Assembly: GCA_034430495.1 (NCBI GenBank)
Contig: DAOUEG010000115.1
Span: 1-62,600 of the forward strand
Length of the DNA: 62,600 bases
From: Dehalococcoidales bacterium
GTDB taxonomy: Bacteria; Chloroflexota; Dehalococcoidia; Dehalococcoidales; RBG-16-60-22
Direction: 5' to 3'
Shown here: in pieces, positions 35,584-57,755 of the stretch
Layout: the number at the start of each line of letters is the position of its first letter
Position numbering within the stretch: the stretch's first letter is position 1
Notes under the pieces: model-generated
Databases searched by the model: none
What the model saw: only the letters and a program-made list of their open reading frames with translations
Told to the model about the DNA's origin: nothing
Program-made: the position numbers and the translations under genes

Positions 35584-36561
35584 ATGGCAGAGAGCAACGT
35601 CCTCAGGATACAGTCAACCGTGGCCAAGGTGATAGAAAACGTGGCCCGCGTCATCGTAGGGAAGGACGAGGTGGTGGAGCTCGCGGCCATCGCGCTGCTG
35701 TGCGAAGGCCACATTCTGCTGGAGGACGTGCCGGGGCTCGGCAAGACGGTGCTGGCCAAGTCCCTGGCGAAGTCGCTCGGCTGCTCCTTCCGGCGCATCC
35801 AGTGCACCCCGGACCTGCTGCCGGCGGACATCACCGGCACCTACATCTTCAATCAGCGGACGTCCGATTTCGAGTTCCGGCCCGGTCCGGTCATCGCGCA
35901 GGTGGTGCTGGCGGACGAAATCAACCGCGCCACGCCGCGCACGCAGAGCGCGCTCTTGGAGGCGATGCAGGAGCGGCAGGTGACGACCGAGGGCGAGACG
36001 CGCCCGCTACCCCGCCCGTTCCTCGTCATGGCGACGCAGAACCCCATCGAGCTGGAAGGCACCTTCCCGCTGCCGGAGGCGCAGCTCGACCGCTTCCTCG
36101 TCAAGATAACGATGGGCTACCCGAGCGTCGCGGAGGACAAGCAGATCCTGGCCCGGTTCCGCACCGAGGACCCGCTCGACGAGCTCCAGCCGGTCATCAC
36201 CGCCGAGGAGCTGCTCGAAATGCAGCAAGCCGTGCGCGAGGTGCACCTGACCGGGGACGTGGAGGACTACATCGTGCGGCTCATCCACGCTACCCGCGAA
36301 CACGAGGCCCTCGAGCTCGGCGCGAGCCCCCGCGCCATGCTGGCCCTCTACAACGCCGCCCAGGCCCTGGCCGCCGTGCGGGGACGGGACTACGCCACCC
36401 CGGACGATATCAAGCACCTCGCCACGCCGGTGCTCGTCCACCGCCTCATCCCCCGGGCCGAGAGCCGGCTGCGCGGCCGGCGCGCCGAGGAAACGTTACA
36501 GGAAATCATGGCCAAGGTCTTCGTGCCGGTGGAGGCGGAGGAAGCAGCCGGGGAAAGCTAG
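35584..36561 (+). CDS. MoxR-family AAA+ ATPase
   Basis: 325 aa. Walker A GLGKT, Walker B LADEINR, and ATQNP sensor motif. Confidence 0.9.
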   Translation: MAESNVLRIQSTVAKVIENVARVIVGKDEVVELAAIALLCEGHILLEDVPGLGKTVLAKSLAKSLGCSFRRIQCTPDLLPADITGTYIFNQRTSDFEFRPGPVIAQVVLADEINRATPRTQSALLEAMQERQVTTEGETRPLPRPFLVMATQNPIELEGTFPLPEAQLDRFLVKITMGYPSVAEDKQILARFRTEDPLDELQPVITAEELLEMQQAVREVHLTGDVEDYIVRLIHATREHEALELGASPRAMLALYNAAQALAAVRGRDYATPDDIKHLATPVLVHRLIPRAESRLRGRRAEETLQEIMAKVFVPVEAEEAAGES

Positions 36562-36564
36562 GCC

Positions 36565-37821
36565 ATGCGGAGCGATAGCTGGCTGCTGCTGGCAGCCCTC
36601 ATCCTTGTCATCTCCCTGGCGCTGCACCAGGTCCCCCTGGCGCTCATTTCACTGCTGTTCCTGCTGGCCGGGGGCGTCTCGCGGCTGTGGAACCGCTACT
36701 GCCTGAGCCGGGTGGAGTACAAGCGTCGGCTGACGGCCAACCGGGTGTTCTTCGGGGACGAGACCGTCTTCGAGATCGAAATCGCCAACCGCAAGCCGCT
36801 GCCGCTGCCCTGGCTCCACATCGAGGACGAGCTGCCGGAGCAGGTGACCCTGCTCAAGGGCAAGGCCCAGCAGGCCGCCGACGACCGGGTCGTCCTCAGC
36901 AACATGCTGCCCATCAATATGTACCACCGTGTCATCCGGCGCTTCCCGCTGAAGTGCGACCGGCGGGGGGCGTTCCTCTTCGGGCCGACCCGCCTCCACT
37001 CCGGCGACCTCTTCGGGTTCTTCCGGCGCACCATGATGATAGAGACGATGGACACGCTGCTCGTCTACCCGCGGCTCGTGCCGCTCGAGGAGCTCGGCAT
37101 CCCCTCGCACCAGTTCTTCGGGGACATCCGCCTCAAGCAGCACCTCTTCCAGGACCCGGTGCTGACCGCCGGGGTGCGGGACTACCACCCGGGCGACAGC
37201 CTGAAACGTATCCACTGGAAGAGCACGGCCCGGCTGGGGAAATTACAGACGAAGCTCTTCGAGCCGACGACGACGGTGGACATCAGCATGTTCCTCGACG
37301 TGCGGACGCTCGACGCGCCCTTCTGGGGCAGCGTGCAGCAGCTCCAGGAGCTGGCCATCATCACGGCGGCGAGCATCGCGCAGGGGGCCCTCGAAGCCGG
37401 GTTCCGGGTGGGGCTCTACGTCAACCAGATAACCCGGTTCTCCAGGGGCCTGGCGCGGGTGCCCCACAGCCAGCATCCGGAGCAGCTGGAGCGCATCCTG
37501 GAGACGCTGGCCCAGGTCCACCAGGTGGACAACATCAAGCTGGAGAACTACATCCGCCAGGAGGCGGCGGCCCTGCCCTACGGCAGCACCATCGTGGCGG
37601 TGACGGCGGTCCCCCGGCCGGAGCTGCTGGCGACGCTGCTCGATATGCAGCGCCTGGGCCGGAGCGCCGCGCTGGTGAAGGTGGGCGGCCCGCCGCCGGA
37701 CGTCAGCCGGACGCTGCGCGCCTACCACGTCACCGATGAGGCCGCCTGGAACGTGGTGGAGAAAATCGGCCTCAAGGAAGCCGGCAGCACGGCGAGCGGA
37801 AGTGATGGAAAAAAGCAATAA
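36565..37821 (+). CDS. DUF58 (vWA-like) domain protein
   Basis: 418 aa. N-terminal 2 TM helices, the DYHPGDSLKRIHWKSTAR signature of DUF58, and its position after MoxR. Confidence 0.8.
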   Translation: MRSDSWLLLAALILVISLALHQVPLALISLLFLLAGGVSRLWNRYCLSRVEYKRRLTANRVFFGDETVFEIEIANRKPLPLPWLHIEDELPEQVTLLKGKAQQAADDRVVLSNMLPINMYHRVIRRFPLKCDRRGAFLFGPTRLHSGDLFGFFRRTMMIETMDTLLVYPRLVPLEELGIPSHQFFGDIRLKQHLFQDPVLTAGVRDYHPGDSLKRIHWKSTARLGKLQTKLFEPTTTVDISMFLDVRTLDAPFWGSVQQLQELAIITAASIAQGALEAGFRVGLYVNQITRFSRGLARVPHSQHPEQLERILETLAQVHQVDNIKLENYIRQEAAALPYGSTIVAVTAVPRPELLATLLDMQRLGRSAALVKVGGPPPDVSRTLRAYHVTDEAAWNVVEKIGLKEAGSTASGSDGKKQ

Positions 37822-39295
37822 AATAGACTGGCTGGCCACCGTGCTCTACCCGCTGGCGGTCGTGCTCATGGAGGCCTTCTGGGTCTTCCCCTGGCTCTAC
37901 TGGCTGGGGAGCTGGCCGATGTACGCCGAGCCGCGCCAGCCGCTGAGCCTGGCGGCCGTCATCGTGGTGCTGGCGGCGGCGCTCGCCCTGACGAAGCTCG
38001 TCAGCCGCCACGAGGAGTGGCCGCTGGCGGCGGTCCGGACGGCGGTCGTCGGGCTGGGCGTGGCGGCGTTCTTCATCGTGTTGCGGCTGGCCTACCCGCC
38101 GCCCGCCGGGACGGGCTGGTTCGTCTATCTCCACGGTTTGCTCGACCAGACCTTCCAGCACCCCAGCACCATCGTGCTGGCGGGGCCGGCGATCGTTTAC
38201 CTCTGGTGGCGGGGCATCACGCTGGGGCGGACGACCACCTATTTCCGGGACGTGTACCGGCTCTTCATCATGGGCCTCGCGGCGCTCATCGTGCTGCTCA
38301 TCCTCTGGCAGGTCAGCGGCTACAACGAGCGGTTCAGCGCGCCGGGGCAGGACGTGGCGATGTACGTCATCGCCTTCTTCTTCTTCGGCCTGCTGGCCAT
38401 CGCCGTCTGCCACCTCTACGCGATACGCCGGACGATGCCGAAGGAGGAAGCGGCCCTCACCTCCGTGCGGCGCTGGCTGCCCATCATGCTGGCGGTGGTC
38501 GGCGGCATGGTGCTCGTCGGCTTCGGCGTGGGGGCGATATTCTCGCCGGAGTTCTTCGATTCGGTCGGCCGCATCGCCCACACGGTGGGCCACGCCCTCA
38601 GTACCGCCGCCGAGTACATTTTGATACCCCTCGGCTACGTCATGGAGGCGGTGCTGTGGGTGCTGCGGTGGTTCATCAACCTCATCCGGGGGAACCTCTC
38701 GGGCGTGGAGCAGGCGTCGAGCGCCAACCAGACGCCGTTGTTCCAGAACGTTGACACCAAGGCCTGGCCGCCGGAGATTCTCGCCGCGCTCAAGTGGGGC
38801 GTCCTCGTGATCATCCTCGGGCTGGTGGTGTTCTTCATCGCCCGGGCGGTGACGCGCTCCCGGCGGCGGCGGAACGCGGAGGACATCGAAGAAATCAACG
38901 AGTCCCTCTTCAGCTGGGCGGGCCTCCGCGACGATTTGAAAGACCTCTTCGGCCACCTGCGGAACCGTTTTGCCCCCAAGCGGCGGCCGCGGCCGCGCAC
39001 GTTTGATGATACCGCCGGGACGCTCGACGTGCGGGAAATTTACCGGCGGCTGCTGTGGGAATCGGCCCGCTCCGGGCTGCCGCGGCGCCCCGGGGAAACG
39101 GTGGAGGAGTACGCGCGGCGCCTGGGGCGGCTGGTACCGGACAGCGCCGCGCCGCTCGAAGGCATCAACCCGGCCTACTCGGAAGCGCGCTACGGCGACC
39201 GGCAACTGGCCGGGGAGCGGGTGCAGGGCGCCAACCAGCTCTGGCGGAGCCTGCGCGGCGTGCTGCGCAGGCTCCGCGGCGAGCCGGGACCGTAA
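37805..39295 (+). CDS. Polytopic membrane protein with C-terminal DUF4129-like domain
   Basis: About 496 aa from ATG 37805, overlapping the DUF58 gene. Multiple TM helices. C-terminal IYRRLLWESARSGLPRRPGETVEEYARRL...YSEARYG motif. Confidence 0.7.
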   Translation: MEKSNKIDWLATVLYPLAVVLMEAFWVFPWLYWLGSWPMYAEPRQPLSLAAVIVVLAAALALTKLVSRHEEWPLAAVRTAVVGLGVAAFFIVLRLAYPPPAGTGWFVYLHGLLDQTFQHPSTIVLAGPAIVYLWWRGITLGRTTTYFRDVYRLFIMGLAALIVLLILWQVSGYNERFSAPGQDVAMYVIAFFFFGLLAIAVCHLYAIRRTMPKEEAALTSVRRWLPIMLAVVGGMVLVGFGVGAIFSPEFFDSVGRIAHTVGHALSTAAEYILIPLGYVMEAVLWVLRWFINLIRGNLSGVEQASSANQTPLFQNVDTKAWPPEILAALKWGVLVIILGLVVFFIARAVTRSRRRRNAEDIEEINESLFSWAGLRDDLKDLFGHLRNRFAPKRRPRPRTFDDTAGTLDVREIYRRLLWESARSGLPRRPGETVEEYARRLGRLVPDSAAPLEGINPAYSEARYGDRQLAGERVQGANQLWRSLRGVLRRLRGEPGP

Positions 39296-44585: not shown

Positions 44586-44614
44586 TTGACAAACCCCGCC
44601 CGTTCCCTTACGAT
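44586..44614 (+). promoter_or_regulatory. Sigma-70-type promoter of bicupin paralog 1
   Basis: TTGACA-N17-TACGAT. SD GAAGGAG precedes the ATG. Confidence 0.6.
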
Positions 44615-44647
44615 GCTACCAATGTTCCGTCCGAAGGAGATTTCGCC

Positions 44648-45556
44648 ATGCCATCCAGCTACGCAAACTACCTCCACAAGCTGACCTTCAGCAACGACGG
44701 CCCCGGCTACTACCGGCAGGTGACCACCATTGATTTGAGCCCGTGGGACATTGACACCCGCATCCAGTACGGCGTCTACGAGGCGGCCGGGCCGCTGGCG
44801 GCGGAGAGCCCGGTGGCCCACACCCACGATTTCGACCAGGTGATGCTCTTCTACGGCGCCGACGCCGCCGACATGGGCGAGCTCGGGGCGGAGATTGAGT
44901 TCCGCCTCAGCGAGACGGCGGAGCGGTTCATGATAACCTCTTCCACGGCGGTGGCGATACCGAAGGGGATGCCGCACTTCCCGGCGGAAATCCAGCGCAT
45001 GAACAGGCGGTTCGTCGGCGTGACGGTGTCCGCGTCATCGGCCTACCGCGAGAAGGCGTACGACATCAGCAAGGAGACGCTCGACAAGGCGCCCTACGGC
45101 AGCTTCATGGGCGGGCTCCGCAAGCACGTCATCCCCATGGCCTTCCAGCGCAAGGGGCCGTGGAGCTACGGCCCGAGCAACCGGGACGATTCCGGCGGCA
45201 GCCTGACCTTCATCCGCGGCAACGACGTGGGCTTCGAGTTCCTCATCATGCTGGAGAGCATCAAGAAGGTGCCCTACCGCTTCGGGCCGGACCCGGACAG
45301 GCCCCACGCCCATGCCCAGCCGGAGATTCTGTTCTTCCTGGGGACGGACCTGGACGACGTATCGAAGCTCAACGGGGAGGCGGAGATCTGTCTCGGCAAG
45401 GAGATGGAGCGCCACACCATCACGGAGCCGACGGCGGTGGTGGTGCCGAAGGGTCTGGCCCACAACCCGCTCGTGATGACGAAGCTGGAAAAACCGTTCC
45501 TGCTGATGGACGTGCGGCCCTTCGGGAGCGGACCGATGAACGCGGGCCGGGGCTAG
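44648..45556 (+). CDS. Uncharacterised bicupin-like protein, paralog 1
   Basis: 302 aa. Two internal repeats, each with HxH...(D/E)...F.G.D...LG.E.E then P(K/A)G..H.P (HTHDFDQVMLFYG...IPKGMPHFP and HAHAQPEILFFLG...VPKGLAHNP). Confidence 0.6.
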   Translation: MPSSYANYLHKLTFSNDGPGYYRQVTTIDLSPWDIDTRIQYGVYEAAGPLAAESPVAHTHDFDQVMLFYGADAADMGELGAEIEFRLSETAERFMITSSTAVAIPKGMPHFPAEIQRMNRRFVGVTVSASSAYREKAYDISKETLDKAPYGSFMGGLRKHVIPMAFQRKGPWSYGPSNRDDSGGSLTFIRGNDVGFEFLIMLESIKKVPYRFGPDPDRPHAHAQPEILFFLGTDLDDVSKLNGEAEICLGKEMERHTITEPTAVVVPKGLAHNPLVMTKLEKPFLLMDVRPFGSGPMNAGRG

Positions 45557-45908: not shown

Positions 45909-46145
45909 CTACTTGATGAATTTCTCCACGTAGGCGGCAAAATCAGCCACCGTGGCCAGCGCCGCCATGCGGTCCTTGTCTATGTCCACCTCGATATCGT
46001 AGACGGTTTCCAGGCTGACGATTATCTGCACCCAGTGGAGCGAGTCCGCCTTGATGTCCTTCAGCGGCGTCTCCGGCTTGAGGGAATCCTCCGGGACGCG
46101 GGCCACCCGGGCGATGCTTTTCCTCAGTTCGTCAATGACGGCCAT
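45909..46145 (-). CDS. Acyl-carrier-protein-like phosphopantetheine carrier
   Basis: 78 aa. IKADSLHWVQIIVSLETVYDIEVDID matches the ACP helix II motif with the DSL serine. Acidic. Confidence 0.8.
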   Translation of the reverse strand: MAVIDELRKSIARVARVPEDSLKPETPLKDIKADSLHWVQIIVSLETVYDIEVDIDKDRMAALATVADFAAYVEKFIK

Positions 46146-46161
46146 GGGCGGCCTCCTTTTC

Positions 46162-47223
46162 TTACCAGCTGTGGTCGAGCGCGTCTTTCGGACAGACGGT
46201 TCGGCAGGTCGTCCCGTTACCGGCGGCGCAGGCTTCTTGTCCGGGGCAGGCGAAGGAGAGTTTCTTCCGCAGCTCCTCCCGGACGATGGCCGTGGGACGG
46301 GCGCCGTTCTCGCTCAGCATGAAGATGCCGGCCGGGCAGGCCTCGACGCACTCGCCGCAGCCGTCGCACTTCTCGGTGTCAATGGTGATGAAGTACTCGC
46401 CGGTGCCGTCCGAGTAACCGTACTGGATTTTCTTGATGGTGGCGGCCCCGCCGTGAAAACGCTCCTCGGCGTAGAGGGCGGCGCCGAGCGCCCCGCAGAG
46501 CTGGGGGTCGTCGGCGAGCATGGGCTCCAGCCCGACTTTTTCTTTTAGCTTGGCCACCATGCCCCTGTTCTTGGAGATGCCGCCGGTGATGGCGAACTGG
46601 GGCTCGATGGCGATGCGCTTGAGCAAATTGAGCGAGCGGGTGGCGATGGCCTCGTGGAGGCCGGCGAGGATGTCCTCCTTGGGCACGCCCTTGCGGTAGT
46701 AGTTGAGCGCCTCCGTCTTGGCGAAGACGGCGCAGATGGTGTTGAAGGGGATGGGGTTCTGCGACCGCAGCGAGACGTCCCCGATGTCTTCCAGCTTCAG
46801 GCCGAGCACGTCCGCTATCATCTCCAGGAAGCGGCCGGTGCCGCCGGCGCACTTGTCGTTCATGACGAAGTTGGTGACGTTGCCGTTGCCGTCGCTGTTG
46901 ATGCCCTTGCAGTCCTGCCCGCCCATGTCGAGGATGGTGCGGACCCCGGGGAAGTACCAGTTGATGCCCCGGGCGTGGGCGCTTATCTCCGAGACGTTCT
47001 CCTGCGCGAAGGGCACGAGCACGCGCCCGTAGCCGGTGGCGACGGTGTAGGTGATGTCTTCACGGGCGATGCCGGTGCCGGCGAGGACGGTGTCGAGTAA
47101 TGTTTCCGAGGTGCGGACGCTCTCCGCCCCGGTGTCCATGATGGCGGACGCGGCGATTTCCCGGTCCTTCATGACGACCGCCTTGGCGGCGCGGGAGCCG
47201 ATGTCTATCCCGGCGAAAATCAC
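46162..47223 (-). CDS. BcrAD_BadFG-family ATPase (BCR/HAD electron-activating subunit) fused to a C-terminal ferredoxin-like domain
   Basis: 353 aa from GTG 47223 (GTGA overlap). AGIDIGSRAAK, DMGGQDCK and NDKCAGGTGRF. C-terminal CDGCGECVEACP plus CPGQEAC...CRTVCP. Confidence 0.8.
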   Translation of the reverse strand: MIFAGIDIGSRAAKAVVMKDREIAASAIMDTGAESVRTSETLLDTVLAGTGIAREDITYTVATGYGRVLVPFAQENVSEISAHARGINWYFPGVRTILDMGGQDCKGINSDGNGNVTNFVMNDKCAGGTGRFLEMIADVLGLKLEDIGDVSLRSQNPIPFNTICAVFAKTEALNYYRKGVPKEDILAGLHEAIATRSLNLLKRIAIEPQFAITGGISKNRGMVAKLKEKVGLEPMLADDPQLCGALGAALYAEERFHGGAATIKKIQYGYSDGTGEYFITIDTEKCDGCGECVEACPAGIFMLSENGARPTAIVREELRKKLSFACPGQEACAAGNGTTCRTVCPKDALDHSW

Positions 47224-48014
47224 GGCGCCATCCCCTTGTCGAGGCTCTCCTGCGCCAGCACCGCCGCCCCGTAAGCCACCGTCAGTTGCGGGCGCTCTCC
47301 CACCAGTACCGGGAAGCCGAGCTCCTTCTCCAGCGCCCTGACCAGTCCCTTGTTGAGGGCCACGCCGCCGGTGACGGCCACCTCGCGGCTCACGCCGACG
47401 CGTTTGGCCATGGACATGAGCCGGGAGACGACGGACTCGAAGATGCCGAGGGCTATCTCGTCCCGGGGCGTCGGCGGCACGCGGTGGATGTGGGAGATGA
47501 CCTCCGACTCCGCGAAGACAGCGCAGGTAGGGGTGATGTCCGCCCCCCTGGCCGCCCCGATGGAGACGGCCGCCATCTCTTCCAATGGCATTTCCAGGAG
47601 CTTGGCCATCTGGGTGAGGAAGAGGCCGGTACCGGCGGCGCACTTGTCGTGGTTGGCCCAGTCCGTTACCCGGCCGCGTTCGTTGATACGGACGACGGTG
47701 CTGCTCTCGGCGCCGATGTCAATGACGAGGCGGGCGGCCGGCAGATCCCGGGACACCCCGCGGGCGAGGCAGGTGGTGAGGGATTTTTGCCCGTGGCTGA
47801 AAGCGACCTCCTTGGCCTCGTTGCCCGTGGCGACGATGAAGGCGTCGCCTTCGAGGGAGAGGCCGGCGGTCCGGCACGCCTCGTCCAACGCGGCGCGGGC
47901 GGACTTTTCCGCTTCCTCGGCGGAGGGGACGACGGCCGCGGCGAGCACGGCGCCGCTCTCCGTGACGACGGCCTTGGTCGTCAGGTGGCCGATATCAATG
48001 CCGACGGCTTTCAT
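47220..48014 (-). CDS. BcrAD_BadFG-family ATPase (second, non-identical subunit)
   Basis: 264 aa. VGIDIGHLTTK, DIGAESS and HDKCAAGTGLF. Confidence 0.85.
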   Translation of the reverse strand: MKAVGIDIGHLTTKAVVTESGAVLAAAVVPSAEEAEKSARAALDEACRTAGLSLEGDAFIVATGNEAKEVAFSHGQKSLTTCLARGVSRDLPAARLVIDIGAESSTVVRINERGRVTDWANHDKCAAGTGLFLTQMAKLLEMPLEEMAAVSIGAARGADITPTCAVFAESEVISHIHRVPPTPRDEIALGIFESVVSRLMSMAKRVGVSREVAVTGGVALNKGLVRALEKELGFPVLVGERPQLTVAYGAAVLAQESLDKGMAP

Positions 48015-48024
48015 GGGCTCTTGC

Positions 48025-48056
48025 CGCTCGTCCTGAGCCTGTCGAAGGATGAGCGA
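48025..48056. repeat. REP-like palindromic unit, copy R4 (inside the operon)
   Basis: Stem cgctcgtcct/aggatgagcg (one G-T pair) around loop GAGCCTGTCGA. Confidence 0.75.
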
Positions 48057-48065
48057 TGGTTCTCC

Positions 48066-49328
48066 TTACCTGTCTTCGAGGAGCTCGAAGAAGCCCTCCA
48101 GTTTTTCCCGCAGCTCCGCCTGGCTGGTGACGGTGGGGTCTACCACGTCGCAGTCGAGCGTGAGGACGGGCACGTCCAGGTCGTTCAGGGTGTCCTTGAA
48201 CAGCTTGATGGTGGCGCAGGAGTGGCGGCAGCCGACGTCCGCGTAGTAGATGGCGCCGTCAATCTTGTAGGCGTCCACCGCAGTGGAGATGCTGCCGAGG
48301 GCGCGGTCGTCCATCGGGCCGTACATGCGGGCCTCGGGTATCATGTAGGACTTCTCCGCCACGCTTTCAAGAGGTTTCGACGGGTCGAGCCTCCCCTCCC
48401 CCCAGTAGGTGAAGAAGGGCTCGATGACGGACACCGCGCCGAACTCGATGGACATCTTCTCCAGGAAGGCCATCGAGTACATCGGCGGGATGAAGAGGCT
48501 CATCAAGCGGAACCGCTCCCGGGGCACGGCGCCCTCGCCGGCGGCGATTTTCGCTTCCAGCTCGCCGATGAGCGTCTCCAGGTAGGCGATGCCCTCCGGC
48601 TGGCCGGGGAAGAGGTAGTCAATGGTGACGAGCTCGAGGAAGCCCATCGGGCTGAACGGCGTGGGAACGTTCTTGCGGAGCTCGTTGACGCGGCGGGTGA
48701 GCTCTATCTGGCGGTCCATGCGGGCCACCGTCTCGGCGAGGACGTCCATGTCGAGCTTCTTGCCGGAGTGCTCTTCCAGGAAGGCGATCATGCCGCGGTA
48801 CTCGTTGACGAGGTAGGCTTTCTCCTCCGGGCTCGCCTGGAAGGGGCGGTCAATGAAGTAGCCGGGGCAGTGGCAGAGCTCCATGATGAGTTCGCCGCTC
48901 TTGGCGGTGTTATCGCAGACCATGTTGGACCACAGCATGACGTCCGGGCAGGGGACGGCCCCGGTGGCGAAGGCGCCGGCCAGGCCGCGGTGCGGGGTGC
49001 AGATCTCCTGCGCGAGGCCGAGGGCGGAGCCGGCGGCCAGGATATCGCCGCACTCCCCGGTGAAGAGGGAGGTCATCCAGGTGGTGGTCTCGGTGTGCAT
49101 GGGGACGAGGCCCATCGCGTGGATGAGCTCGGAGGGGAAGAAGACGGTGTGCGCCGCCACGAAATCGCCGTGCTGCCTGGCGTTCTGGAGGCGCTCGAAG
49201 TACCCCAGGAGCATGTCGTAGTACATGACCTGGGAGCGGCGGGCGGCGGGGTCCGCTTCCGTCATCCGCTTGATGAGACGGCAGGCCCGGATAATGGCCT
49301 GTATCTTGCTCCCGGAGGTCGTCGTCAT
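48066..49328 (-). CDS. 2-hydroxyacyl-CoA dehydratase / benzoyl-CoA reductase catalytic subunit family (HGD-D)
   Basis: 420 aa. FFPSELIHAMGLVP, conserved Cys (EICTPHR, VGCRHSC), and the C-terminal LLEDR-type end typical of the family. Confidence 0.8.
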   Translation of the reverse strand: MTTTSGSKIQAIIRACRLIKRMTEADPAARRSQVMYYDMLLGYFERLQNARQHGDFVAAHTVFFPSELIHAMGLVPMHTETTTWMTSLFTGECGDILAAGSALGLAQEICTPHRGLAGAFATGAVPCPDVMLWSNMVCDNTAKSGELIMELCHCPGYFIDRPFQASPEEKAYLVNEYRGMIAFLEEHSGKKLDMDVLAETVARMDRQIELTRRVNELRKNVPTPFSPMGFLELVTIDYLFPGQPEGIAYLETLIGELEAKIAAGEGAVPRERFRLMSLFIPPMYSMAFLEKMSIEFGAVSVIEPFFTYWGEGRLDPSKPLESVAEKSYMIPEARMYGPMDDRALGSISTAVDAYKIDGAIYYADVGCRHSCATIKLFKDTLNDLDVPVLTLDCDVVDPTVTSQAELREKLEGFFELLEDR

Positions 49329-50494
49329 TTCTTGCGGCCCTCGATCATCTCGATAAAAGCCTGGACGCGGGTGGCGATCTGGCCGGAGCCCGACGTGCCG
49401 TACTCCAGGTCCAGCCCGAGCACCGGCACGCCGATGGCCGCCAGCCGCTTGGTCAATAGCGGTACATCATGCGCGTAGGGGACGCAGTAGCGGATAATCT
49501 GGCTGACGACGCCGTCCACCCTGAATTTTTCCACGTACTCGATGATACGGTTGAACCGCTCGTCCGAGGGGTACATGCGGGCGCAGGGGAAGTTGTTGAG
49601 GTAGCGGTGGGCGAGGGCCTCCTGAAGGCTGTCGAATTTCTCCGGGTAGACGAGGTCGCCCCAGTAGCGGGTGCTCGTGCAGAGCTCGTCGGTGACGACG
49701 AGGCCGCCCTCGTTCTCGATGGAAGCGATGAACTCCGGGTTGGTGAGCACGGAGCCGACCACCATGAGGCGGGCGCGGTAGGTGTGCGCGACCTTCGAGG
49801 CTTCTATCTCTTCGAGCAGCTCCTTGAGCCACTCGTTGAAGAGCTCCTTGGGCATGCGGTAGCTGGCGTTGGAGACCTCCATGACCTCGGCGCCGGTGAC
49901 GGGCGGGTGGTCCCGCGTGCGGTACTCGTAGAGGGCGTGGAGGAGGCGGCGGGACTCGTTGTAGAGCTCGATGGAGGCGCGCAGGGCGTCGTCCGGGATC
50001 TCCGTTTCGAGGAACTCCTCGAGGTGCTGCTGGAAGCGGACGACCTCGCGGTGGTAGAGGAGCACGGCCTCCTCGGAGTATTTCCGCGGCACGCTCAGCA
50101 CGTGGTGGAACGGGGTGCCGATGTAGGTGCGCCAGACGTCGAAGAGGCGGCGGGCGCCGTCGCAGGTGGAAGCCCCCACCACGCCATCGAGGAAATCGTA
50201 CTCCCCGGCGAGCCCCATCTGGAGGCAGGAGCGGGAGAAGGAGCAGTTGTTGACGTAGAGGTAGGCGTTGCCGTCGTCGAGGTCCGTCTCACGGTCGTAG
50301 CCGGTGATGCGGACGGACAAAAGGCCGGCGGCGTGGAGGATTTCCTCCGGCACGTAGGTGCAGAGAAACCCGAAGACCCTGCCCCCCCGCTGTTTCCGCT
50401 CCCGTATCTGGGCGGTGTCGGGGAAGGTCCGGTTGACCTCGCGGAATTTCTCGAGCGTTTGCAGCCCGCTGGATTTTGCTGTTCCTGTTGCCAT
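49325..50494 (-). CDS. 2-hydroxyacyl-CoA dehydratase / benzoyl-CoA reductase catalytic subunit family (HGD-D), second subunit
   Basis: About 389 aa. FLCTYVPEEILHAAGLL, NNCSFSRSC and STCDGARR. ATG 50494 is preferred over TTG 50524, which would abut the predicted -10. Confidence 0.8.
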   Translation of the reverse strand: MATGTAKSSGLQTLEKFREVNRTFPDTAQIRERKQRGGRVFGFLCTYVPEEILHAAGLLSVRITGYDRETDLDDGNAYLYVNNCSFSRSCLQMGLAGEYDFLDGVVGASTCDGARRLFDVWRTYIGTPFHHVLSVPRKYSEEAVLLYHREVVRFQQHLEEFLETEIPDDALRASIELYNESRRLLHALYEYRTRDHPPVTGAEVMEVSNASYRMPKELFNEWLKELLEEIEASKVAHTYRARLMVVGSVLTNPEFIASIENEGGLVVTDELCTSTRYWGDLVYPEKFDSLQEALAHRYLNNFPCARMYPSDERFNRIIEYVEKFRVDGVVSQIIRYCVPYAHDVPLLTKRLAAIGVPVLGLDLEYGTSGSGQIATRVQAFIEMIEGRKK

Positions 50495-50526
50495 AGCGAG
50501 ATGTGAGAGCCCGTGCCTTGTCAATC

Positions 50527-50634: not shown

Positions 50635-51453
50635 TCAGGAAATAAGGTAGCCGCCGTCCACCACGACCATCTCGCCGGTGATATAGGAAGCCATTTCCGA
50701 GGCCAGGAAGAGGGCCGCCCGGGCGATATCGTCCGCCTCCCCCAGCCGGCCGAGGGCCATGCGGGCCATGAAATTCTTGAGTTCCTTTTTCTGCGCCCGG
50801 AGGTCGTCCGGGGAACCCTCGCCGGGCGCGACGCTGGTGGCGAGGGCGCGGGTGAGGATGGCGCCGGGGGCGATGGCGTTGACGCGGATATCGTGCGGGC
50901 CGAGCTCCCGGGCCAGGCTCTTCGTCAGCATGAGCACGCCGCCCTTGGAGGCATCGTAGGCGGTCATGCCCGCCGCCGAGGGGTGGAGGGCCTCGATGGA
51001 GGCCAGGTTGATGATGGCCCCGGGGCGGTGGTGCTCCCGCATCCACGCCGCGGCGTACCTGGAGCAGAGCCAGGTGCCGGTGAGGTTGACGGACGTTACC
51101 TTCTCGAAGTCCGCGGCGGACATCTCTTCGAGGAACATCCTCGGGTAGATGCCGGCGTTGTTGACGAGGACGTCAATGGAGCCGGGCTTCTCCGCCGCCG
51201 CGGCCACCATCGCCCTGACGCTCGCCTCGTCGGCGACGTCGCACTGCGCGGCGAAGGCCTGGTAGCCCTGTCTGGCGAGGTCGGCAGCGGAGGCAGCGGC
51301 GGCGGTCTCGTCAATATCGGCCAATACCACGGCGGCCCCGGCCTCGGCGAGGCGCGCGGCGATGGCCAGGCCGAGACCGGCTGCCCCGCCGGTGACGATG
51401 GCCCCCTTGCCCTTCAGGCTCAGCAGATCCGTAATGGGAACGAAGTCCGGCAT
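50635..51453 (-). CDS. Short-chain dehydrogenase/reductase (SDR)
   Basis: 272 aa from ATG 51453 (SD GAGGTGG). TGGAAGLG, NNAG and YDASKGG. Confidence 0.88.
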   Translation of the reverse strand: MPDFVPITDLLSLKGKGAIVTGGAAGLGLAIAARLAEAGAAVVLADIDETAAAASAADLARQGYQAFAAQCDVADEASVRAMVAAAAEKPGSIDVLVNNAGIYPRMFLEEMSAADFEKVTSVNLTGTWLCSRYAAAWMREHHRPGAIINLASIEALHPSAAGMTAYDASKGGVLMLTKSLARELGPHDIRVNAIAPGAILTRALATSVAPGEGSPDDLRAQKKELKNFMARMALGRLGEADDIARAALFLASEMASYITGEMVVVDGGYLIS

Positions 51454-51567
51454 AACCACCTCGCGTTCCTGAGTATCATACGGGGAACGGGGAGGGGGCG
51501 TCAACACTTTACCGCCCGTCCGGGGGGGAGTACACTATGGTGGCAATTCTCAGCGGGGAGGCAAAGC

Positions 51568-52077: not shown

Positions 52078-53229
52078 ATGCTTGTTGTCTGGCTCATCAT
52101 CAGCGCCATCGTGAGCACCTCCATCGCCATCGGCGTGCTGGCGGCGAAACGGGTGGGGCTCAGCGGCTGGGACATCGCCCTGACCTACCTCGGCGCGGTC
52201 GGTTTCCCGGCCGTCGTCTACCTGCTCGTAGATACCTTTTTCGTCAAGGAAAAGCCATCCAAGGAAGGGAGCACGAACGTCATGGCCAGAGAAAAGGAAT
52301 TTTCCAATCTCGTCAAGAGCATGATTATCAAGGACCCGCCGGCGGGCCTCTACCCGGAAAAACGCATCTGGATGGAGGCGAAGGACCTCGAGGGGTTCAA
52401 CGCCCACTTCTCCTTCGGGTTCGTCAGCCGGCCCACCACCTTCCACCCGCTGGAAGGCGCCCTCGTCCACCCCTACGACGAGCTGCTCGTCTTCGAGGGG
52501 ACGGACACCTCGAGCATCCTCAAGCTCGGCGCGGAGGTCTCCATCGAGCTCGGTGAGGAGCGCGAGGAGTACGTGTTCAACGAGCCGACCGTCGTCCTCG
52601 TCCCGAAGGGCGTCCCCCACGGCCCGGCCAAGGTGCGGAGCCTGGAGCGGCCCATCGCCCACTACAGCATCGGCCTGGCGCCGGAGTACCGGGCGGAGGC
52701 CGTCAAGGCCGCCGACCTCAAGCCCGCCGTGGCGGGCGACAGGTACGCCAGGTACGTCAAGAAGATGGTTACCACCGTGGACGAGAGCCAGGCGAACGGC
52801 CGGATGCCCTCCGTCATCGGGCGGGACGGCATCATGCGGCCGGCGGAGTTCGGCGTGGGGCCGGGCAACGGCGACCAGATTGTCTGGCTCTACGGGGACG
52901 ACCTCGAAGGCTTCAACGTCAACTTCACCTGGGGCTTCTACTCCCGGTGCGGCAAGTGGCACCGCGGCGGCGAGGCCCACACCCACCCGGAGGCGGAAAT
53001 CCTCTGCTTCGTGGGGCTCGATACCGACCACCTGGACTACCTCGGCGCGGAGCTGGAGCTGGGTTTGGGGCCGGACTACGAGCGGCACGTTTTCAACACG
53101 CCGACCGTCGCCATCTGCCCGGCCGGGTTCCCGCACCTGCCGCTCATCACCCGATGGGTGGACAAGCCGTACGGGTTCTTCGTCATCTGCCTCAGCGGCG
53201 AGCACGCCTCGCCGTGGGTGGAAGCGTAG
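52078..53229 (+). CDS. Membrane-anchored bicupin-like protein, paralog 2
   Basis: 383 aa. Two N-terminal TM helices, then two cupin-like repeats (HPYDELLVFEG...VPKGVPHGP and HTHPEAEILCFVG...CPAGFPHLP). Confidence 0.6.
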   Translation: MLVVWLIISAIVSTSIAIGVLAAKRVGLSGWDIALTYLGAVGFPAVVYLLVDTFFVKEKPSKEGSTNVMAREKEFSNLVKSMIIKDPPAGLYPEKRIWMEAKDLEGFNAHFSFGFVSRPTTFHPLEGALVHPYDELLVFEGTDTSSILKLGAEVSIELGEEREEYVFNEPTVVLVPKGVPHGPAKVRSLERPIAHYSIGLAPEYRAEAVKAADLKPAVAGDRYARYVKKMVTTVDESQANGRMPSVIGRDGIMRPAEFGVGPGNGDQIVWLYGDDLEGFNVNFTWGFYSRCGKWHRGGEAHTHPEAEILCFVGLDTDHLDYLGAELELGLGPDYERHVFNTPTVAICPAGFPHLPLITRWVDKPYGFFVICLSGEHASPWVEA

Positions 53230-53317: not shown

Positions 53318-54400
53318 ATGGAGGTCCGCATCAAGTATCGTCCTTTCGGCACCACCGGACGCGAGGTGTCCGTGCTCGGGCTGGCGCTCGGCAACGTGCC
53401 GCCGGAAGCGGTCGAGGCCGTGCTCCGGGCGGCGCTGGCGCGGGGCATCACCTATCTGGAAATCGGCCGGCATGAAGAGCAGGTCTGCCGCCTCGTCGGG
53501 CGGGCGGTGCGGGAAGCCGGAACGGACGTCTTTATCACCGTCAGCGTCCCGCCGGGGCATTTCGATACGGGGTTCGACCTGAAAGCCTGGCTCCGGGAGC
53601 GGGCCGGCTGGCTGGGGGTAAAAGCCCTCGACGGGCTGGACTTCGCCGGGCTCGACCGCAACACCTGGCCGCGCCTGCGGGAGGCGGGGCTGCTGAAAAA
53701 AGCGGACGGTCTGGCAAGACACCTCGGGTTCTCGTTCTACGACCAGGCGCTCTACCTGCGGCCCGTTCTGCGGGAGTTCGGCGGATGGGCCTTCTGCCGG
53801 GTCAACGCCAGCTTCATGGACGCCGACCGCCTGCCGGGGGCGGAGGGGCTCATCGCCGCGGCGGCAGAAGCGGGACTGGCGGTGGTGGCGGCCGAGCCGC
53901 TGCTGGAAGGCCGGCTGCTGAACAACCTCCCTGAAAGCGTGGCGCAGCTCTGGGGCGAGCGCTCCGCGGCCGGGTACGCCCTCCGCTGGGCCTGGCACCA
54001 GTCCCCGGTGGCGACGGCCGCCGTCACCCTGCGCACGCCGGACGAGGTGAACGAATACGCGGATATCGCGGACGGGCCGGAGCTCTTATCCGTACGAGAG
54101 GAAGTCCTCGTCAGCCGCGTGCGGGACGCCTACCGGGCGCTGCGGCCCGTCCCCTGCACCACCTGCCGGGCCTGCATGCCGTGCCCGCGGGGCGTTGACG
54201 CACCGCGTATTTTCGAGCTCTACAACGACGCCGTCATGTACGGAGACCGCGCCTATGGCCGGGCCGTGTACGAGCGGGAAGGGCACGATATCACCCTCTG
54301 CGATGAGTGCGGCGATTGCGCCCGGCGCTGCGGACGCCACATTGACATCCCGGCGCGGGTCAGGGAAGCGGTCGCCGGCCTGCGCCGGCCGGAACCATAA
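53318..54400 (+). CDS. Aldo/keto reductase-family protein with C-terminal 4Fe-4S ferredoxin-like domain
   Basis: 360 aa. YRPFGTTGREVSVLGLAL is AKR-type. C-terminal CTTCRACMPCP and CDECGDCARRC motifs. Confidence 0.75.
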   Translation: MEVRIKYRPFGTTGREVSVLGLALGNVPPEAVEAVLRAALARGITYLEIGRHEEQVCRLVGRAVREAGTDVFITVSVPPGHFDTGFDLKAWLRERAGWLGVKALDGLDFAGLDRNTWPRLREAGLLKKADGLARHLGFSFYDQALYLRPVLREFGGWAFCRVNASFMDADRLPGAEGLIAAAAEAGLAVVAAEPLLEGRLLNNLPESVAQLWGERSAAGYALRWAWHQSPVATAAVTLRTPDEVNEYADIADGPELLSVREEVLVSRVRDAYRALRPVPCTTCRACMPCPRGVDAPRIFELYNDAVMYGDRAYGRAVYEREGHDITLCDECGDCARRCGRHIDIPARVREAVAGLRRPEP

Positions 54401-54438
54401 CGGCATTGGCATTCCGCCGGAGTATCCCCTATAATCAA

Positions 54439-55932
54439 ATGAGCCACATGGACAATCAAAGGGTTCCCCTCAGCAAGGACACGGTCTTCTGGCAGGCGCT
54501 CTTCGCGGCGAAATCAATCGCCGTCATCGGCGCCAAGGACGTGCCCGGCACCTGGGGGTTCGATGCCCTCCACGCCGCGGTGGACTCCAGAAAGACGGAC
54601 CCGGAGCGGCGCGTCTACCCGGTCAATCCCAGCTGCGACAAGCTCATGGGGCTGACCTGCCGCAAGACCATCACGGAGATCCCCGGCCCGGTGGAGCTGG
54701 CGGTCATCGTGGTGCCGGCCCGGGCGGCGCCGCAGGTGTTTCGGCAGGCGGCGGAGAAGGGCGTCAAGGCGGTGGTCATCGTCTCGGCCGGGTTCGCCGA
54801 GGTGGACGCGGCCGGGGCGGCCCTCCAGGAAGAGATAATGGCGACGGCGAAGGAGTACGGCCTGCACTTCGTCGGGCCGAACTGCATCGGCCACGCCGAT
54901 TTCTTCACCCGGGTGGCCAGCGCCGGTCTGGCGAGCCGCCTCCCCTCCGGCCCCGTGTCCCTCGTCACCCAGAGCGGCACCCTCGGCGCCAGCCTCATGC
55001 AGACGGTGACGAGCCGGACGCTCGGGCTGGCCAAGCTCGTCAGCACCGGCAACGAGGCGAGCATCCACCTCGAGGACTGCCTCGAGTTTTTCGGCGACGA
55101 CCCCAAGACAGAGATCATCGCCTGCTACATCGAGGGCCTGCGCCAGGGGCGCCGCTTCTACGAGCTGGCCAGGGAGATTACGAAGAAGAAACCCATCGTC
55201 GTCATCAAGTCCGGCGGCACCGGGGAGGCGGCCAAGGCGGCCCACTCCCACACCGGGGCGCTCTCCGGGGCGGACGCCATCTACGAGGCGGCCTTCCGGC
55301 AGGCGGGCGTTATCCGGGCCGAGGACGAGGACGAGCTGGCGGACATCGCCCAGGGGCTGTGCTACCAGCCGCTGCCGAAGGGCAACCGTATCGCTATTTT
55401 GACGATGGGCGGCGGCTTCGGCGTGGTGACGGCGGAGGCCTGCGAGCGGGAAGGGCTCGCCATCGCCCACCTCCAGGACAAGACGATCAAGCGGCTCGAC
55501 GGCCTGCTGCCGGCCCGCTGGAACCGGGGCAACCCGGTGGACATGGTGGGGCTGCGGCCCGGGGCCGGGGACACGACCGTGCCCGGCTGCCTCCACGCCC
55601 TCCTCGACGACGCCAACGTGGACGCCGTCATCTCCCTCCTGCCGCCGAACCCCGGCATGTTCCAGGAAGTGATGCGGCTGAGCCCGGAAAAACTCAGGGA
55701 AGCCGCCGAGGCCAACGAGCGGTCCGTGGACAAGCTGGCCGGGGAGCTGAAAAGCACCTACGGCAAGCCGGTCTACATCATCAGCCGGTTCTCCCTGCGC
55801 GGCGAGCCCATCAAGACCGGCTACGTGCCCACCCACCAGATGCCGGAGTACACCCACAGCCGGCGGGGGGCCAAGGCCATCGGCCGGCTCGTCTGGTACC
55901 AGCACTACCTCGCCATGAGGAAGAAGCAGTAA
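54439..55932 (+). CDS. ADP-forming acyl-CoA synthetase (NDP-forming, acetate-CoA ligase family), alpha/CoA-binding subunit
   Basis: KSIAVIGAKD CoA-binding Rossmann fold, GPNCIG, SQSGTLG, and GHTGALSG-like AHSHTGALSG phosphohistidine loop. Start uncertain (ATG 54439 or TTG 54406). Confidence 0.85.
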   Translation: MSHMDNQRVPLSKDTVFWQALFAAKSIAVIGAKDVPGTWGFDALHAAVDSRKTDPERRVYPVNPSCDKLMGLTCRKTITEIPGPVELAVIVVPARAAPQVFRQAAEKGVKAVVIVSAGFAEVDAAGAALQEEIMATAKEYGLHFVGPNCIGHADFFTRVASAGLASRLPSGPVSLVTQSGTLGASLMQTVTSRTLGLAKLVSTGNEASIHLEDCLEFFGDDPKTEIIACYIEGLRQGRRFYELAREITKKKPIVVIKSGGTGEAAKAAHSHTGALSGADAIYEAAFRQAGVIRAEDEDELADIAQGLCYQPLPKGNRIAILTMGGGFGVVTAEACEREGLAIAHLQDKTIKRLDGLLPARWNRGNPVDMVGLRPGAGDTTVPGCLHALLDDANVDAVISLLPPNPGMFQEVMRLSPEKLREAAEANERSVDKLAGELKSTYGKPVYIISRFSLRGEPIKTGYVPTHQMPEYTHSRRGAKAIGRLVWYQHYLAMRKKQ

Positions 55933-55933
55933 G

Positions 55934-56617
55934 ATGCCGAAGAAAGCGGAGCCCCCCGAGGAACGACTCGTCAACGAGGTCGAGACCAAGGAGCGCCTCA
56001 GGAAGGCCGGTATACCGGTCATCGAGACACGGCTGGCCCGCACCCGCGCCGAGGCCGTCGAAACGGCCAAAGCCCTCGGCTTCCCGGCGGCCATGAAGAT
56101 CGTCTCGCCGGACGCCATCCACAAGACGGACGTCGGCGGGGTGAAGCTGGACCTCAGGAACGCGGCCCAGGCCGGCCAGGCCTACTCGGACATCATCGCC
56201 AACGTCAGGCAGCACGTGCCGAAGGCGAAAATCGAGGGCGTATCGGTGCAGCGGATGGCCGAGCCGGGCGTGGAAATCATCATCGGCATGACGATAGACC
56301 CGCAGTTCGGGCCGGTCATCATGTTCGGGCTGGGCGGCATCTTCGTCGAGGTCTTGAAGGACGTGTCCTTCCGGCTCGTACCGGTGGCCCGCATTGATGC
56401 CGCCGAGATGATACAGGAGATCCGGGGCAAGGCGCTGCTCGAGGGCTACCGAGGCCAGCCGCCGGTCAACCTCCCGGCGTTGGAGAAACTCATCGTCAAG
56501 GTGTCCGATTTCATCGAGAAGAACCCGGACGTGAAGGAGCTCGACCTCAACCCGCTCATCGCCACGGACAAGGGCATCGTGGCGGTGGACGCGCGCATGG
56601 TGCTCAAGGCAGACTAG
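55934..56617 (+). CDS. ADP-forming acyl-CoA synthetase, beta (ATP-grasp) subunit
   Basis: 227 aa. ATP-grasp pattern (GFPAAMKIVSPDAIHKTDVGGV) and ELDLNPL near the C-terminus. Confidence 0.85.
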   Translation: MPKKAEPPEERLVNEVETKERLRKAGIPVIETRLARTRAEAVETAKALGFPAAMKIVSPDAIHKTDVGGVKLDLRNAAQAGQAYSDIIANVRQHVPKAKIEGVSVQRMAEPGVEIIIGMTIDPQFGPVIMFGLGGIFVEVLKDVSFRLVPVARIDAAEMIQEIRGKALLEGYRGQPPVNLPALEKLIVKVSDFIEKNPDVKELDLNPLIATDKGIVAVDARMVLKAD

Positions 56618-56710: not shown

Positions 56711-57367
56711 TCAGAACGCCATTGTTTTCAGGTCGTCGGCCACTCTCAGCTGCGGCCCGGTGAGGGTCTGCACCTCCTCCGGCGTCCAGCCGGGGGCGGT
56801 CTCCTTCAGCAGCAGGCCGTCCGGCGTGACCTCGATGACGGCGATGTCCGTGATGATGAGGTCCACGCAGGCGGGCGCCGTGAGCGGGTAGGTGCACTTT
56901 TTGAGGATTTTCGGCTCGTTGTTCTTCGTCGTGTGCTTCAGCACGCAGATGAGGTAGTGGGCGCCGAAGGCGAGGTCCATCGCCCCGCCCATGTTGCCGG
57001 GACGGCCGAGGCCGGTCGTCCAGTTGGCGAGGTCGCCCCGCTCCGAGACCTGCATCCCGCCGAGCACGCAGAGGTCAATGTGGCGGCCCCGTATCATGGC
57101 GAAGGACTCGTCGTGCTGGAAAAAACACATCCCCGGCTTGGGCGTGGCGAACTGGCCGGTGGCGTTGACGAGGTGGAAGTCCTGCTCCTCCTCGCGCTCC
57201 GGCGTCGGTCCGTAGCCGAGGCAGTCGAGCCCGGCGGCGACGGCCATCGTTAAGCTGTCCTCGTCCCAGTTCGCGACGGCCCGGCCGGTGGTGGCGGACC
57301 AGTCGCGGGTGCCGGGACCGAGCCGCCGCAGCGGCACGTAGGCCCCGCAGGAAACGATGCCGGTCAT
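56711..57367 (-). CDS. Chimeric ORF: HMG-CoA-synthase/thiolase-fold N-terminus (about 55 aa) fused in frame to a 5'-truncated 3-oxoacid CoA-transferase subunit B. Likely gene remnant.
   Basis: MTGIVSCGAYVPLRRL...WDEDSLTMAVAAGLDCL is the HMGCS-like start. From DFHLVNATGQ...MIRGRHIDLCVLGGMQVS...NMGGAMDL it matches AtoA/ScoB. The SENG catalytic-Glu region is absent. Confidence 0.6.
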   Translation of the reverse strand: MTGIVSCGAYVPLRRLGPGTRDWSATTGRAVANWDEDSLTMAVAAGLDCLGYGPTPEREEEQDFHLVNATGQFATPKPGMCFFQHDESFAMIRGRHIDLCVLGGMQVSERGDLANWTTGLGRPGNMGGAMDLAFGAHYLICVLKHTTKNNEPKILKKCTYPLTAPACVDLIITDIAVIEVTPDGLLLKETAPGWTPEEVQTLTGPQLRVADDLKTMAF

Positions 57368-57383: not shown

Positions 57384-57755
57384 TCACGCGTCCGGGCCTT
57401 TCTCCTGGTCCTCTTTTTCGCGATTCACGTAGTCCTGGTACCACTTCAGGCCGGAGCCGAAGATATCGGCGATGGCGATGCCGGACTTTTGTGATTTTTC
57501 CTCTTGCCGCTTGATTTGTTCCTTCACCTCGTCCAGCTTCGCCAGCAGCTCCCGGTGCCGCTCTTCCGCCCGCGCCTCCGCCTGTCCCAGCCGGAACGCC
57601 AGCAAAGCGAGGGCCAGCAGGCCGACCCCGCCGAGCTCCAGCCCGACGCGCGCCGCGACGCTGTCCACGAACCCGGAACTGACGATGCCGCCGATGCCGG
57701 CCAGGGCCAGTATCAGCGCGGCCAGGAGGTAAATCTTGGTGGTGGTGTTTGACAT
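57384..57755 (-). CDS. Small membrane protein with C-terminal coiled coil
   Basis: 123 aa. Two hydrophobic helices, then a charged EARAEERHRELLAKLDEVKEQIKRQEEK segment. Confidence 0.55.
   Translation of the reverse strand: MSNTTTKIYLLAALILALAGIGGIVSSGFVDSVAARVGLELGGVGLLALALLAFRLGQAEARAEERHRELLAKLDEVKEQIKRQEEKSQKSGIAIADIFGSGLKWYQDYVNREKEDQEKGPDA

Follow-up and report, generated by a model that had tools for sequence, protein, structure and literature searches.

What is the function of three divergent proteins of the same, internally duplicated cupin architecture that are encoded near each other in the genome of an anaerobic bacterium? The question is raised by a stretch of 62,600 nucleotides from a Dehalococcoidales bacterium (positions 1 to 62,600 of the forward strand of contig DAOUEG010000115.1, assembly GCA_034430495.1), here called the window. 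An earlier note, made from the letters of the window alone, had pointed out the three open reading frames (ORFs) and their shared architecture, and its coordinates proved right; it had placed the third ORF correctly and left its minus strand unstated. Paralogue A (44648-45556, plus strand) is a cytoplasmic bicupin of 302 amino acids (aa) with an N module at about aa 1-150 and a C module at about aa 151-302. Paralogue B (52078-53229, plus strand) is a 383-aa ORF whose bicupin core starts at Met69 (nt 52282), and paralogue C (58918-59847, minus strand) is a 309-aa bicupin encoded by the last gene of an operon with a Zn-dependent alcohol dehydrogenase (Zn-ADH) and a transketolase. We conclude with high confidence that these proteins represent a real, uncharacterized, metal-binding bicupin family, which combines a known fold and classical metal motifs and has no Pfam or NCBIfam model, no solved structure and no characterized member.

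Three paralogues built from a duplicated cupin module

The G+C content at third codon positions (GC3) is 0.93, 0.92 and 0.91 for A, B and C, respectively, in a window with an overall G+C content of 66-67%, and this coding-type composition (GC3 >0.9) indicates that all three are real genes. Pairwise BLASTP comparison yielded E-values of 1.3e-29 (A-B), 9e-18 (A-C) and 5e-13 (B-C), with off-diagonal alignments that pair the N-terminal half of one paralogue with the C-terminal half of another. Using half-domain profiles built from 40 A-type sequences, hhalign aligned residues 1-150 of A with residues 151-302 over 127 columns (probability 99.9%, E-value 4.5e-32), and the match takes in an N-terminal 'KY..Y..L.F' segment. 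Half-domain alignment, the check proposed in the earlier note, thus confirms the duplicated architecture from both sides, cross-half BLASTP and hhalign, and the profile match indicates that each protein is a tandem duplication of a cupin module of about 150 aa. A hidden Markov model (HMM) of the family, applied to the six-frame translation of the window, found no match beyond ORFs A, B and C, and loosened cupin motifs had no occurrence in the window outside these three ORFs. Judged by their sequences, A, B and C are distant paralogues that represent at least three old subfamilies of one bicupin family.

Fold and placement among known cupins

AlphaFold2 models of A and B, generated from family alignments, are both all-β (pLDDT 90.1 and pTM 0.89 for A, 87.4 and 0.88 for B). 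Searched against the PDB with Foldseek, the models gave more than 250 matches at E≤1e-3, and the top 50 shown per model were all bicupins. OxdC, MncA, 7S/11S seed globulins (vicilins) and quercetinase YxaG were the best matches, with E-values of about 1e-13 to 1e-10, TM-scores of 0.43-0.58 and identities of 6-12%. At the level of predicted models, the bicupin fold with its double-stranded β-helix barrel occurring twice per chain is therefore confirmed, and the relatives found in this way are generic bicupins only (TM-score around 0.55, identity 9-12%).

Scans of Pfam and NCBIfam gave no match at E≤1 for A or B, and C reached 22.2 bits against Pfam Cupin_2 (PF07883), below the gathering threshold of 27.2. 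Among 100 diverse family members scanned in the same way, 30 matched the generic Cupin_2 model at E≤0.01 and none matched a specific enzyme family. Neither A, B and C nor the 100 members showed an HMM match to Cupin_1 or pirin, and no HMM match was found to the cupin phosphoglucose isomerase (PGI, PF06560), phosphomannose isomerase (PMI, types I and II), KduI or RmlC families. Sequence and profile searches of the PDB returned nothing better than E~0.003, with nothing real for A or B in phmmer and full-length profile searches; a cytochrome c555 entry matched by the A and B searches was discarded as a covalently linked trimer for which three repeats of about 8 bits had been summed. The earlier note had been unable to match the proteins to a characterized cupin enzyme, and the Pfam, NCBIfam and PDB sequence searches likewise place none of them.

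The top matches of two independent profiles, a pooled single-module profile and a C-subfamily profile, were PDB entries 6j4b (126 aa) and 7eqk (131 aa) at E-values of 0.0027-0.009. The motifs common to these entries and the family, PHxHxxDE...GAxIEV...IPxGxxHC, extend over 57-64 residues. The two entries are presumably the β-methyl-indolepyruvate epimerases MarH and StnK3, a tentative assignment that is consistent with their chain length and mutual similarity. The C profile also matched YxaG (E 0.005-0.07) over stretches of about 33 residues per domain, in which the motif-2 His of the family aligns with what is presumably the Fe ligand His275; the A and B profiles gave no such match.

Among well-studied bicupins, OxdC, MncA and other germin-type proteins (1j58, 1uw8, 2vqa) share the two tandem barrels and are the best Foldseek matches of A and B (E ~4e-13). 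Both barrels of OxdC carry a His/His/Glu/His site, and the enzyme further features a lid Glu and, three positions ahead of the first ligand His, an Arg that binds the substrate. However, identity to OxdC and MncA is only 9-12%, with TM-scores of 0.53-0.58, a root-mean-square deviation of 6-10 Å and no Cupin_1 match, and the LGAExE strand motif and the N-terminal KY...L.F segment are, in this comparison, specific to the Dehalococcoidia family. The quercetin 2,3-dioxygenase YxaG of Bacillus subtilis (1y3t, 2h0v) is a bicupin of similar length (337 aa) with a weak profile match (E 0.005-0.007) that places the family motif-2 PxGxxH on its presumed ligand His. It differs in that the match covers only about 33 residues per domain at TM-scores of 0.43-0.50, its chemistry is O2-dependent and there is no flavonoid-related context for the present family.

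Predicted metal sites and subfamily signatures

Each barrel is predicted to keep a mononuclear metal site, to which motif 1 contributes two His and one Glu or Gln and motif 2 the remaining His. In A, the N-terminal site (N-site) is formed by His58/His60/Gln64/His110 together with Glu82/Glu84, and the C-terminal site (C-site) by His220/His222/Glu226/His272 together with Glu244/Glu246. The N-site of B has lost its first His ((L)/His/Glu/His, in the sequence LVHPYDE) and its C-site reads His/His/Glu/His. The corresponding residues of C are His73/His75/His79/His123 and His229/His231/Glu235/His279.

In an alignment of 118 A, 119 B and 117 C orthologues (354 in total), the C-terminal H/H/E/H site is invariant across subfamilies (354/354). 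The N-site signature is fixed for each subfamily: H/H/Q/H plus Glu82/Glu84 in A, (L/I/V)/H/E/H plus Glu/Ser in B, and H/H/(H/Q/E)/H plus mostly Glu (102/117) followed by Thr/Ser in C. Given these fixed signatures, the deviations of the N-site are not random drift. Across 97 divergent full-length cluster representatives, ligand positions are kept in 83-92, the second His of motif 1 in 89 and the first His of the N-site in only 62. Beyond the canonical ligands, an acidic residue or pair on the strand between the two motifs (LGAExE) is conserved.

Compared with the established cupin motif 1, G(X)5HXH(X)3-4E(X)6G, the C-terminal halves of all three paralogues are canonical and the N-terminal halves vary, with Gln64 (A) and His79 (C) at the acid position. 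The PxGxxH core of motif 2, G(X)5PXG(X)2H(X)3N, is found in five of the six halves, its His being followed by x-Pro and not by the classical ...N. The earlier note had assigned both motifs to every half. Its literal motif 1, H-x-H-x3-(D/E)-x-(I/L/M)-x-F-x-G, turned out to fit only two of six, the C-terminal halves of A and B; motif 2 held for five, the exception being the C-terminal half of C, which reads IPKKTKHCP. The suggestion that the two motifs contain plausible metal ligands agrees with the family-wide conservation of these positions.

Distribution of the family

A profile search against 1.84 billion cluster representatives identified 1,281 clusters (50% identity) at E≤1e-3, of which 762 are found at E≤1e-10. 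Named matches are nearly all metagenome-assembled genomes (MAGs) of Dehalococcoidales/Dehalococcoidia, with a few labelled Desulfobacteraceae, Desulfatiglans, Thermodesulfobacteriota, Bathyarchaeia or Acidobacteria and no cultured organism among the matches listed. The family is thus largely confined to uncultured anaerobic Dehalococcoidia. Several MAGs hold an A orthologue (50-66% identity) plus a second A-like paralogue (43-47%). With 1,281 clusters, MAGs that carry several paralogues and relatives that show tandem triplications, the family is indeed lineage-expanded, as had been supposed from the three copies of the window.

One member of the family (P0483) carries a C-terminal 2x[4Fe-4S] ferredoxin domain. 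Two apparent fusions of an enoyl-CoA hydratase (crotonase) with a bicupin (P0442, P0426) contain truncated cupin modules; they are probably neighboring genes merged by frameshift or assembly error and were not used as Rosetta-stone evidence. A literature search yielded nothing relevant on bicupins in Dehalococcoidia or on cupins with transketolase in Chloroflexi, and the gene partnerships of B and C detailed below appear not to have been described before.

Paralogue C and a transketolase operon

Directly upstream of C lies a split transketolase (59963-61779, minus strand), identified by Pfam and consisting of an N-half (60913-61779) and a C-half (59963-60916). The first visible gene of the operon encodes a Zn-dependent medium-chain alcohol/polyol dehydrogenase (61828-62600, minus strand; Pfam ADH_zinc_N and Glu_dehyd_C); its frame is open to the edge of the window, where the gene is cut, and no VOC gene is visible in the window. 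In relatives, the operon order is VOC/glyoxalase, Zn-ADH, transketolase N-half, transketolase C-half and bicupin C. The order ADH/transketolase/C is found in five of six independent contexts, namely the window, L014/L015, L097, L178 and L179. In the sixth (L012), C follows glmS, a PGM/PMM phosphohexomutase and two sugar-1-phosphate nucleotidyltransferases. A gene of the NAD-dependent epimerase/dehydratase family, assigned by Pfam (57777-58895 in the window, plus strand), is convergent with C in four of the six contexts (window, L012/L013, L014/L015 and L179).

Three tandem C-type copies follow the transketolase genes in L178 (8001-11656) and L179 (6271-10088), with a PhdYeFM/YoeB-type toxin-antitoxin pair inserted between C copies. 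Within a few kb of C, L012 and L014 contain CoA-transferase and synthetase genes similar to those of the window.

Paralogue B and an aldo-keto reductase partner

Downstream of B, the window encodes an aldo-keto reductase (AKR) with a C-terminal 4Fe-4S dicluster domain (53318-54400, plus strand; Pfam Aldo_ket_red and Fer4_9/Fer4_17). Among 48 metagenome loci with enough downstream DNA, an AKR gene directly follows B on the same strand in 42, or in 44 when the second and third downstream positions are counted as well. The B-AKR pair is also found in the window, L008, L010/L011 and L096. Gene order thus points to the AKR as a near-obligate partner of B. The Fe-S domain of the AKR is present in the window copy and some relatives among the copies checked. 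Searches of the PDB with the AKR and epimerase partner genes returned distant generic matches only.

The remaining flanks of B are variable, one genome having the order IclR-B-AKR-TRAP transporter and another B-AKR-MFS_2-GH3. Across many MAGs, B orthologues share 67-84% identity, and most of them are 311-320 aa long, starting at the Met encoded at nt 52282. Residues 1-68 of B form a two-helix hydrophobic extension with protein-level conservation only in the closest relatives (80-89% identity), and both starts (52078 and 52282) carry a Shine-Dalgarno-like sequence. The 68-aa extension (52078-52281) could be a membrane anchor gained in recent times or reflect an alternative start.

The window further contains a LarA-like (Lar_N) gene (30458-31750, plus strand) and a MoxR AAA+/DUF58/DUF4129 triad (35584-39295, plus strand); both are also found near B-AKR in L008, indicating larger-scale synteny.

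Paralogue A stands alone

A is separated from an upstream pyruvate kinase gene by a 70-nt gap that contains a promoter-like TTGACA-17 nt-TACGAT element (44586-44614, plus strand) with 10 of 12 σ70 consensus positions. A Shine-Dalgarno-like GAAGGAG (44633-44639, plus strand), read from the sequence, is located 8 nt 5' of the ATG of A. Both signals had been proposed in the earlier note and both are present, although only as sequence patterns; a consensus promoter scan found 4 sites in the region, compared with 0.2 expected from shuffles.

A survey of 80 genome loci revealed no conserved partner of A. The pyruvate kinase gene is found upstream of A only in relatives of at least 65% identity, and neighbors are unrelated at 57-60%. 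Each neighbor family is limited to about 8 of the 36 A-type loci at most; an MFS transporter was found close by in 8 loci and an epimerase together with a steroid-reductase-like gene in 5. A is therefore predicted to stand alone, being transcribed by itself and having no conserved partner genes. The interleaving of the three bicupins with oxidoreductase and CoA-metabolism genes, from which, along with the three divergent copies, a lineage-expanded enzyme family had been surmised, does exist in the window, but conserved partners are confined to B and C. A functional link of A to the adjoining benzoyl-CoA-reductase (BCR)/2-hydroxyacyl-CoA-dehydratase-like cluster was rejected, as this cluster is encoded on the other strand and has no counterpart next to A orthologues in other genomes.

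Downstream of the second A-like paralogue (the 43-47% tier; L061, L064 and others), 9 of 43 loci have a gene for a MeaB-type G3E GTPase, and in 6 loci QueA lies upstream of the paralogue. This MeaB/QueA linkage may be shared synteny of closely related MAGs.

Proposed function

Our favored reading, which we put forward tentatively, is that the bicupins are O2-independent, divalent-metal-dependent enolizing isomerases, epimerases or tautomerases. The invariant C-terminal His3-Glu site would bind a divalent metal (Fe2+, Mn2+, Zn2+ or Ni2+) that would coordinate and polarize the carbonyl or α-hydroxy-carbonyl of a small polar substrate. Proton transfer via a metal-stabilized enediolate or enolate would then fall to a nearby Glu of the LGAE strand, and the diverged N-terminal site would set the specificity of each subfamily. 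C would carry out the isomerization step of the sugar-cleavage operon formed by Zn-ADH and split transketolase, B would pass a carbonyl product to its AKR partner, as in KduI/KduD, and A would act on a probably anionic metabolite. Candidate substrate classes are a sugar or sugar phosphate and a 2-oxo acid or acyl-CoA.

Several known systems provide parallels for such chemistry. KduI is a bicupin 5-keto-4-deoxyuronate isomerase encoded beside KduD, the reductase that consumes its product; the parallel with B-AKR is one of functional analogy and not homology, with no KduI HMM match and an AKR in place of a short-chain dehydrogenase/reductase (SDR). Cupin-type PGI (1j3p, 4lta) and other cupin aldose-ketose isomerases are metal-dependent and O2-independent and use a Glu base, and the sugar-phosphate/transketolase context of C fits with them. 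StnK3 is a 129-aa cupin-fold epimerase that acts next to a 2-oxo group, is 82% identical to MarH and shares with it an enolization chemistry that has been described (PMC4742848). This is the type of chemistry proposed here for the Dehalococcoidia bicupins. The matched entries 6j4b and 7eqk differ in being single barrels of 126-131 aa with marginal E-values, compared with the fused double barrel of the present family, and they presumably stem from actinomycete antibiotic clusters, whereas the family is found in primary or catabolic contexts of anaerobes. With regard to pathway logic, the sulfo-TK pathway is a transketolase-dependent sugar cleavage that needs isomerases and a terminal ADH (PMC9594981). 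Its isomerase SqwI belongs to the RpiB/LacAB family and was rejected as a cupin parallel, the analogy being limited to the logic of the pathway (PMC9594981). The O2 independence of the proposed reaction agrees with the host: the window encodes pyruvate:ferredoxin oxidoreductase (PFOR) and a BCR/2-hydroxyacyl-CoA-dehydratase-type enzyme, which makes O2-dependent chemistry less likely.

A number of observations speak against enolization. The Foldseek neighbors are OxdC, MncA, seed globulins and quercetinase at TM-scores of 0.43-0.58 and not sugar isomerases, none of the cupin PGI, PMI, KduI and RmlC families was matched by HMM, and the profile match to cupin-type PGI is non-significant (E 0.18-1.3) and limited to motif 2. 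The assignment of 6j4b and 7eqk to MarH and StnK3 is presumptive. The second Glu of ExE is Ser or Thr in the N-terminal half of B and in both halves of C and is thus not a universal catalytic residue. With no conserved neighbors, the chemistry of A is extrapolated from paralogues at about 25% identity. Finally, FMN reductase, SDR and ABC exporter genes often precede B (and MarR as well in L008) and a 2x[4Fe-4S] domain is joined to one member of the family, all of which hints at redox or detoxification chemistry.

The bicupins could instead be non-redox lyases, hydrolases, decarboxylases or ring-opening enzymes that use the metal as a Lewis acid, as exemplified by KdgF, ureidoglycine aminohydrolase, ureidoglycolate lyase and dimethylsulfoniopropionate lyase. 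Such chemistry would suit the H/H/E/H site and the additional acidic residues just as well, and in some genomes B is found near TRAP or GPH-type transporters and a GH3 glycosidase, as are enzymes of uronate and sugar-acid metabolism. Furthermore, cupins of unclear role are known to accompany sugar pathways, for example DUF4867 (PMC11968277). DUF4867 itself, a cupin of sulfoglycolysis clusters, was rejected as a relative on the basis of a missing Pfam match and serves as a parallel case of a cupin beside sugar enzymes. However, no HMM or PDB similarity to the named enzyme families was found, and the weak sequence-profile relatives of the bicupins are limited to presumed epimerases and a quercetinase. 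We regard non-redox lyase-type chemistry as unlikely.

An O2- or reactive oxygen species-dependent bicupin, that is, a dioxygenase, oxidase or OxdC-like enzyme serving detoxification or aromatic ring cleavage in a micro-oxic niche, seems quite improbable. It would account for OxdC and quercetinase YxaG being the best Foldseek matches, for the match of the C profile to YxaG (E 0.005), for the NADPH-FMN reductase/flavodoxin-like genes, SDRs and ABC exporters that recur upstream of B, together with MarR in L008, and for the VOC/glyoxalase gene that heads the C operon in relatives. Yet OxdC needs O2, and the hosts are anaerobic and possess PFOR as well as oxygen-sensitive BCR/2-hydroxyacyl-CoA-dehydratase-type enzymes. 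In addition, A has Ser55 at the place of the substrate Arg of OxdC, the structural likeness is generic (TM-score ~0.55, identity 9-12%) and Cupin_1 and pirin HMMs give no match.

A non-catalytic metal store, buffer, chaperone or sensor of the MncA type, or a subunit that serves the Fe-S AKR as redox partner, is very unlikely: MncA is among the top structural matches, each chain has two conserved metal sites, an A-like subgroup is followed by a MeaB-type GTPase (9/43 loci) and one member carries a fused ferredoxin domain, but A and C are cytoplasmic proteins without a signal peptide, the MeaB linkage may be mere shared synteny of close MAGs, and fixed but differing N-site signatures combined with the operon linkage of B and C to enzymes are typical of enzymes with distinct substrates.

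Other genes of the window

Between A and B lies a four-subunit benzoyl-CoA-reductase/2-hydroxyacyl-CoA-dehydratase-like cluster (45909-50524, minus strand) that comprises a pair of HGD-D subunits and a pair of BcrAD/BadFG ATPases, with a 2x[4Fe-4S] ferredoxin domain fused to one of the ATPases. None of the subunits reaches any NCBIfam equivalog cut-off. An SDR gene (50635-51507) stands at the head of the cluster, and a 78-aa ORF resembling acyl carrier protein (45909-46145) and an ORF of about 89 aa follow at its other end. Between the AKR gene and C, the window encodes a two-subunit ADP-forming acyl-CoA synthetase (54406-55932 and 55934-56617), a lone 3-oxoacid CoA-transferase B-like subunit (56711-57367) whose score falls short of the NCBIfam cut-off, and, in a 123-aa ORF (57384-57755), a membrane/coiled-coil protein with no family match. 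A 929-aa ORF at 23171-25960 (minus strand) has a coding-type composition (GC3 of 0.91) and no Pfam match at E≤1e-4.

Implications for Dehalococcoidia

Dehalococcoidia are abundant in anoxic sediments, aquifers and the subsurface; most have not been cultured, and little of their carbon metabolism has been mapped. That these bacteria hold an uncharacterized cupin family will not surprise a specialist, and it is the B-AKR and transketolase-C modules that represent testable leads. More broadly, the bicupins might be an unrecognized enzyme family that supplies steps of anaerobic carbon pathways in Dehalococcoidia, with C as the isomerase of a new transketolase route, B and AKR as a two-component system and A as a stand-alone enzyme, a scenario that we consider rather doubtful at present. 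If true, C would act in the cleavage of an unusual sugar (deoxy, sulfo or polyol-derived), bicupin B and the ferredoxin-linked AKR would reduce a carbonyl substrate with low-potential electrons, and A would serve the class as a whole as a stand-alone enzyme of a common metabolite. The B-AKR pair and the C operon provide concrete handles for assigning function and for delimiting two new pathway modules. As there is no Pfam or NCBIfam model and no structure, annotation pipelines label the family 'hypothetical', and a family model would improve the annotation of thousands of metagenomic proteins even before a function is assigned.

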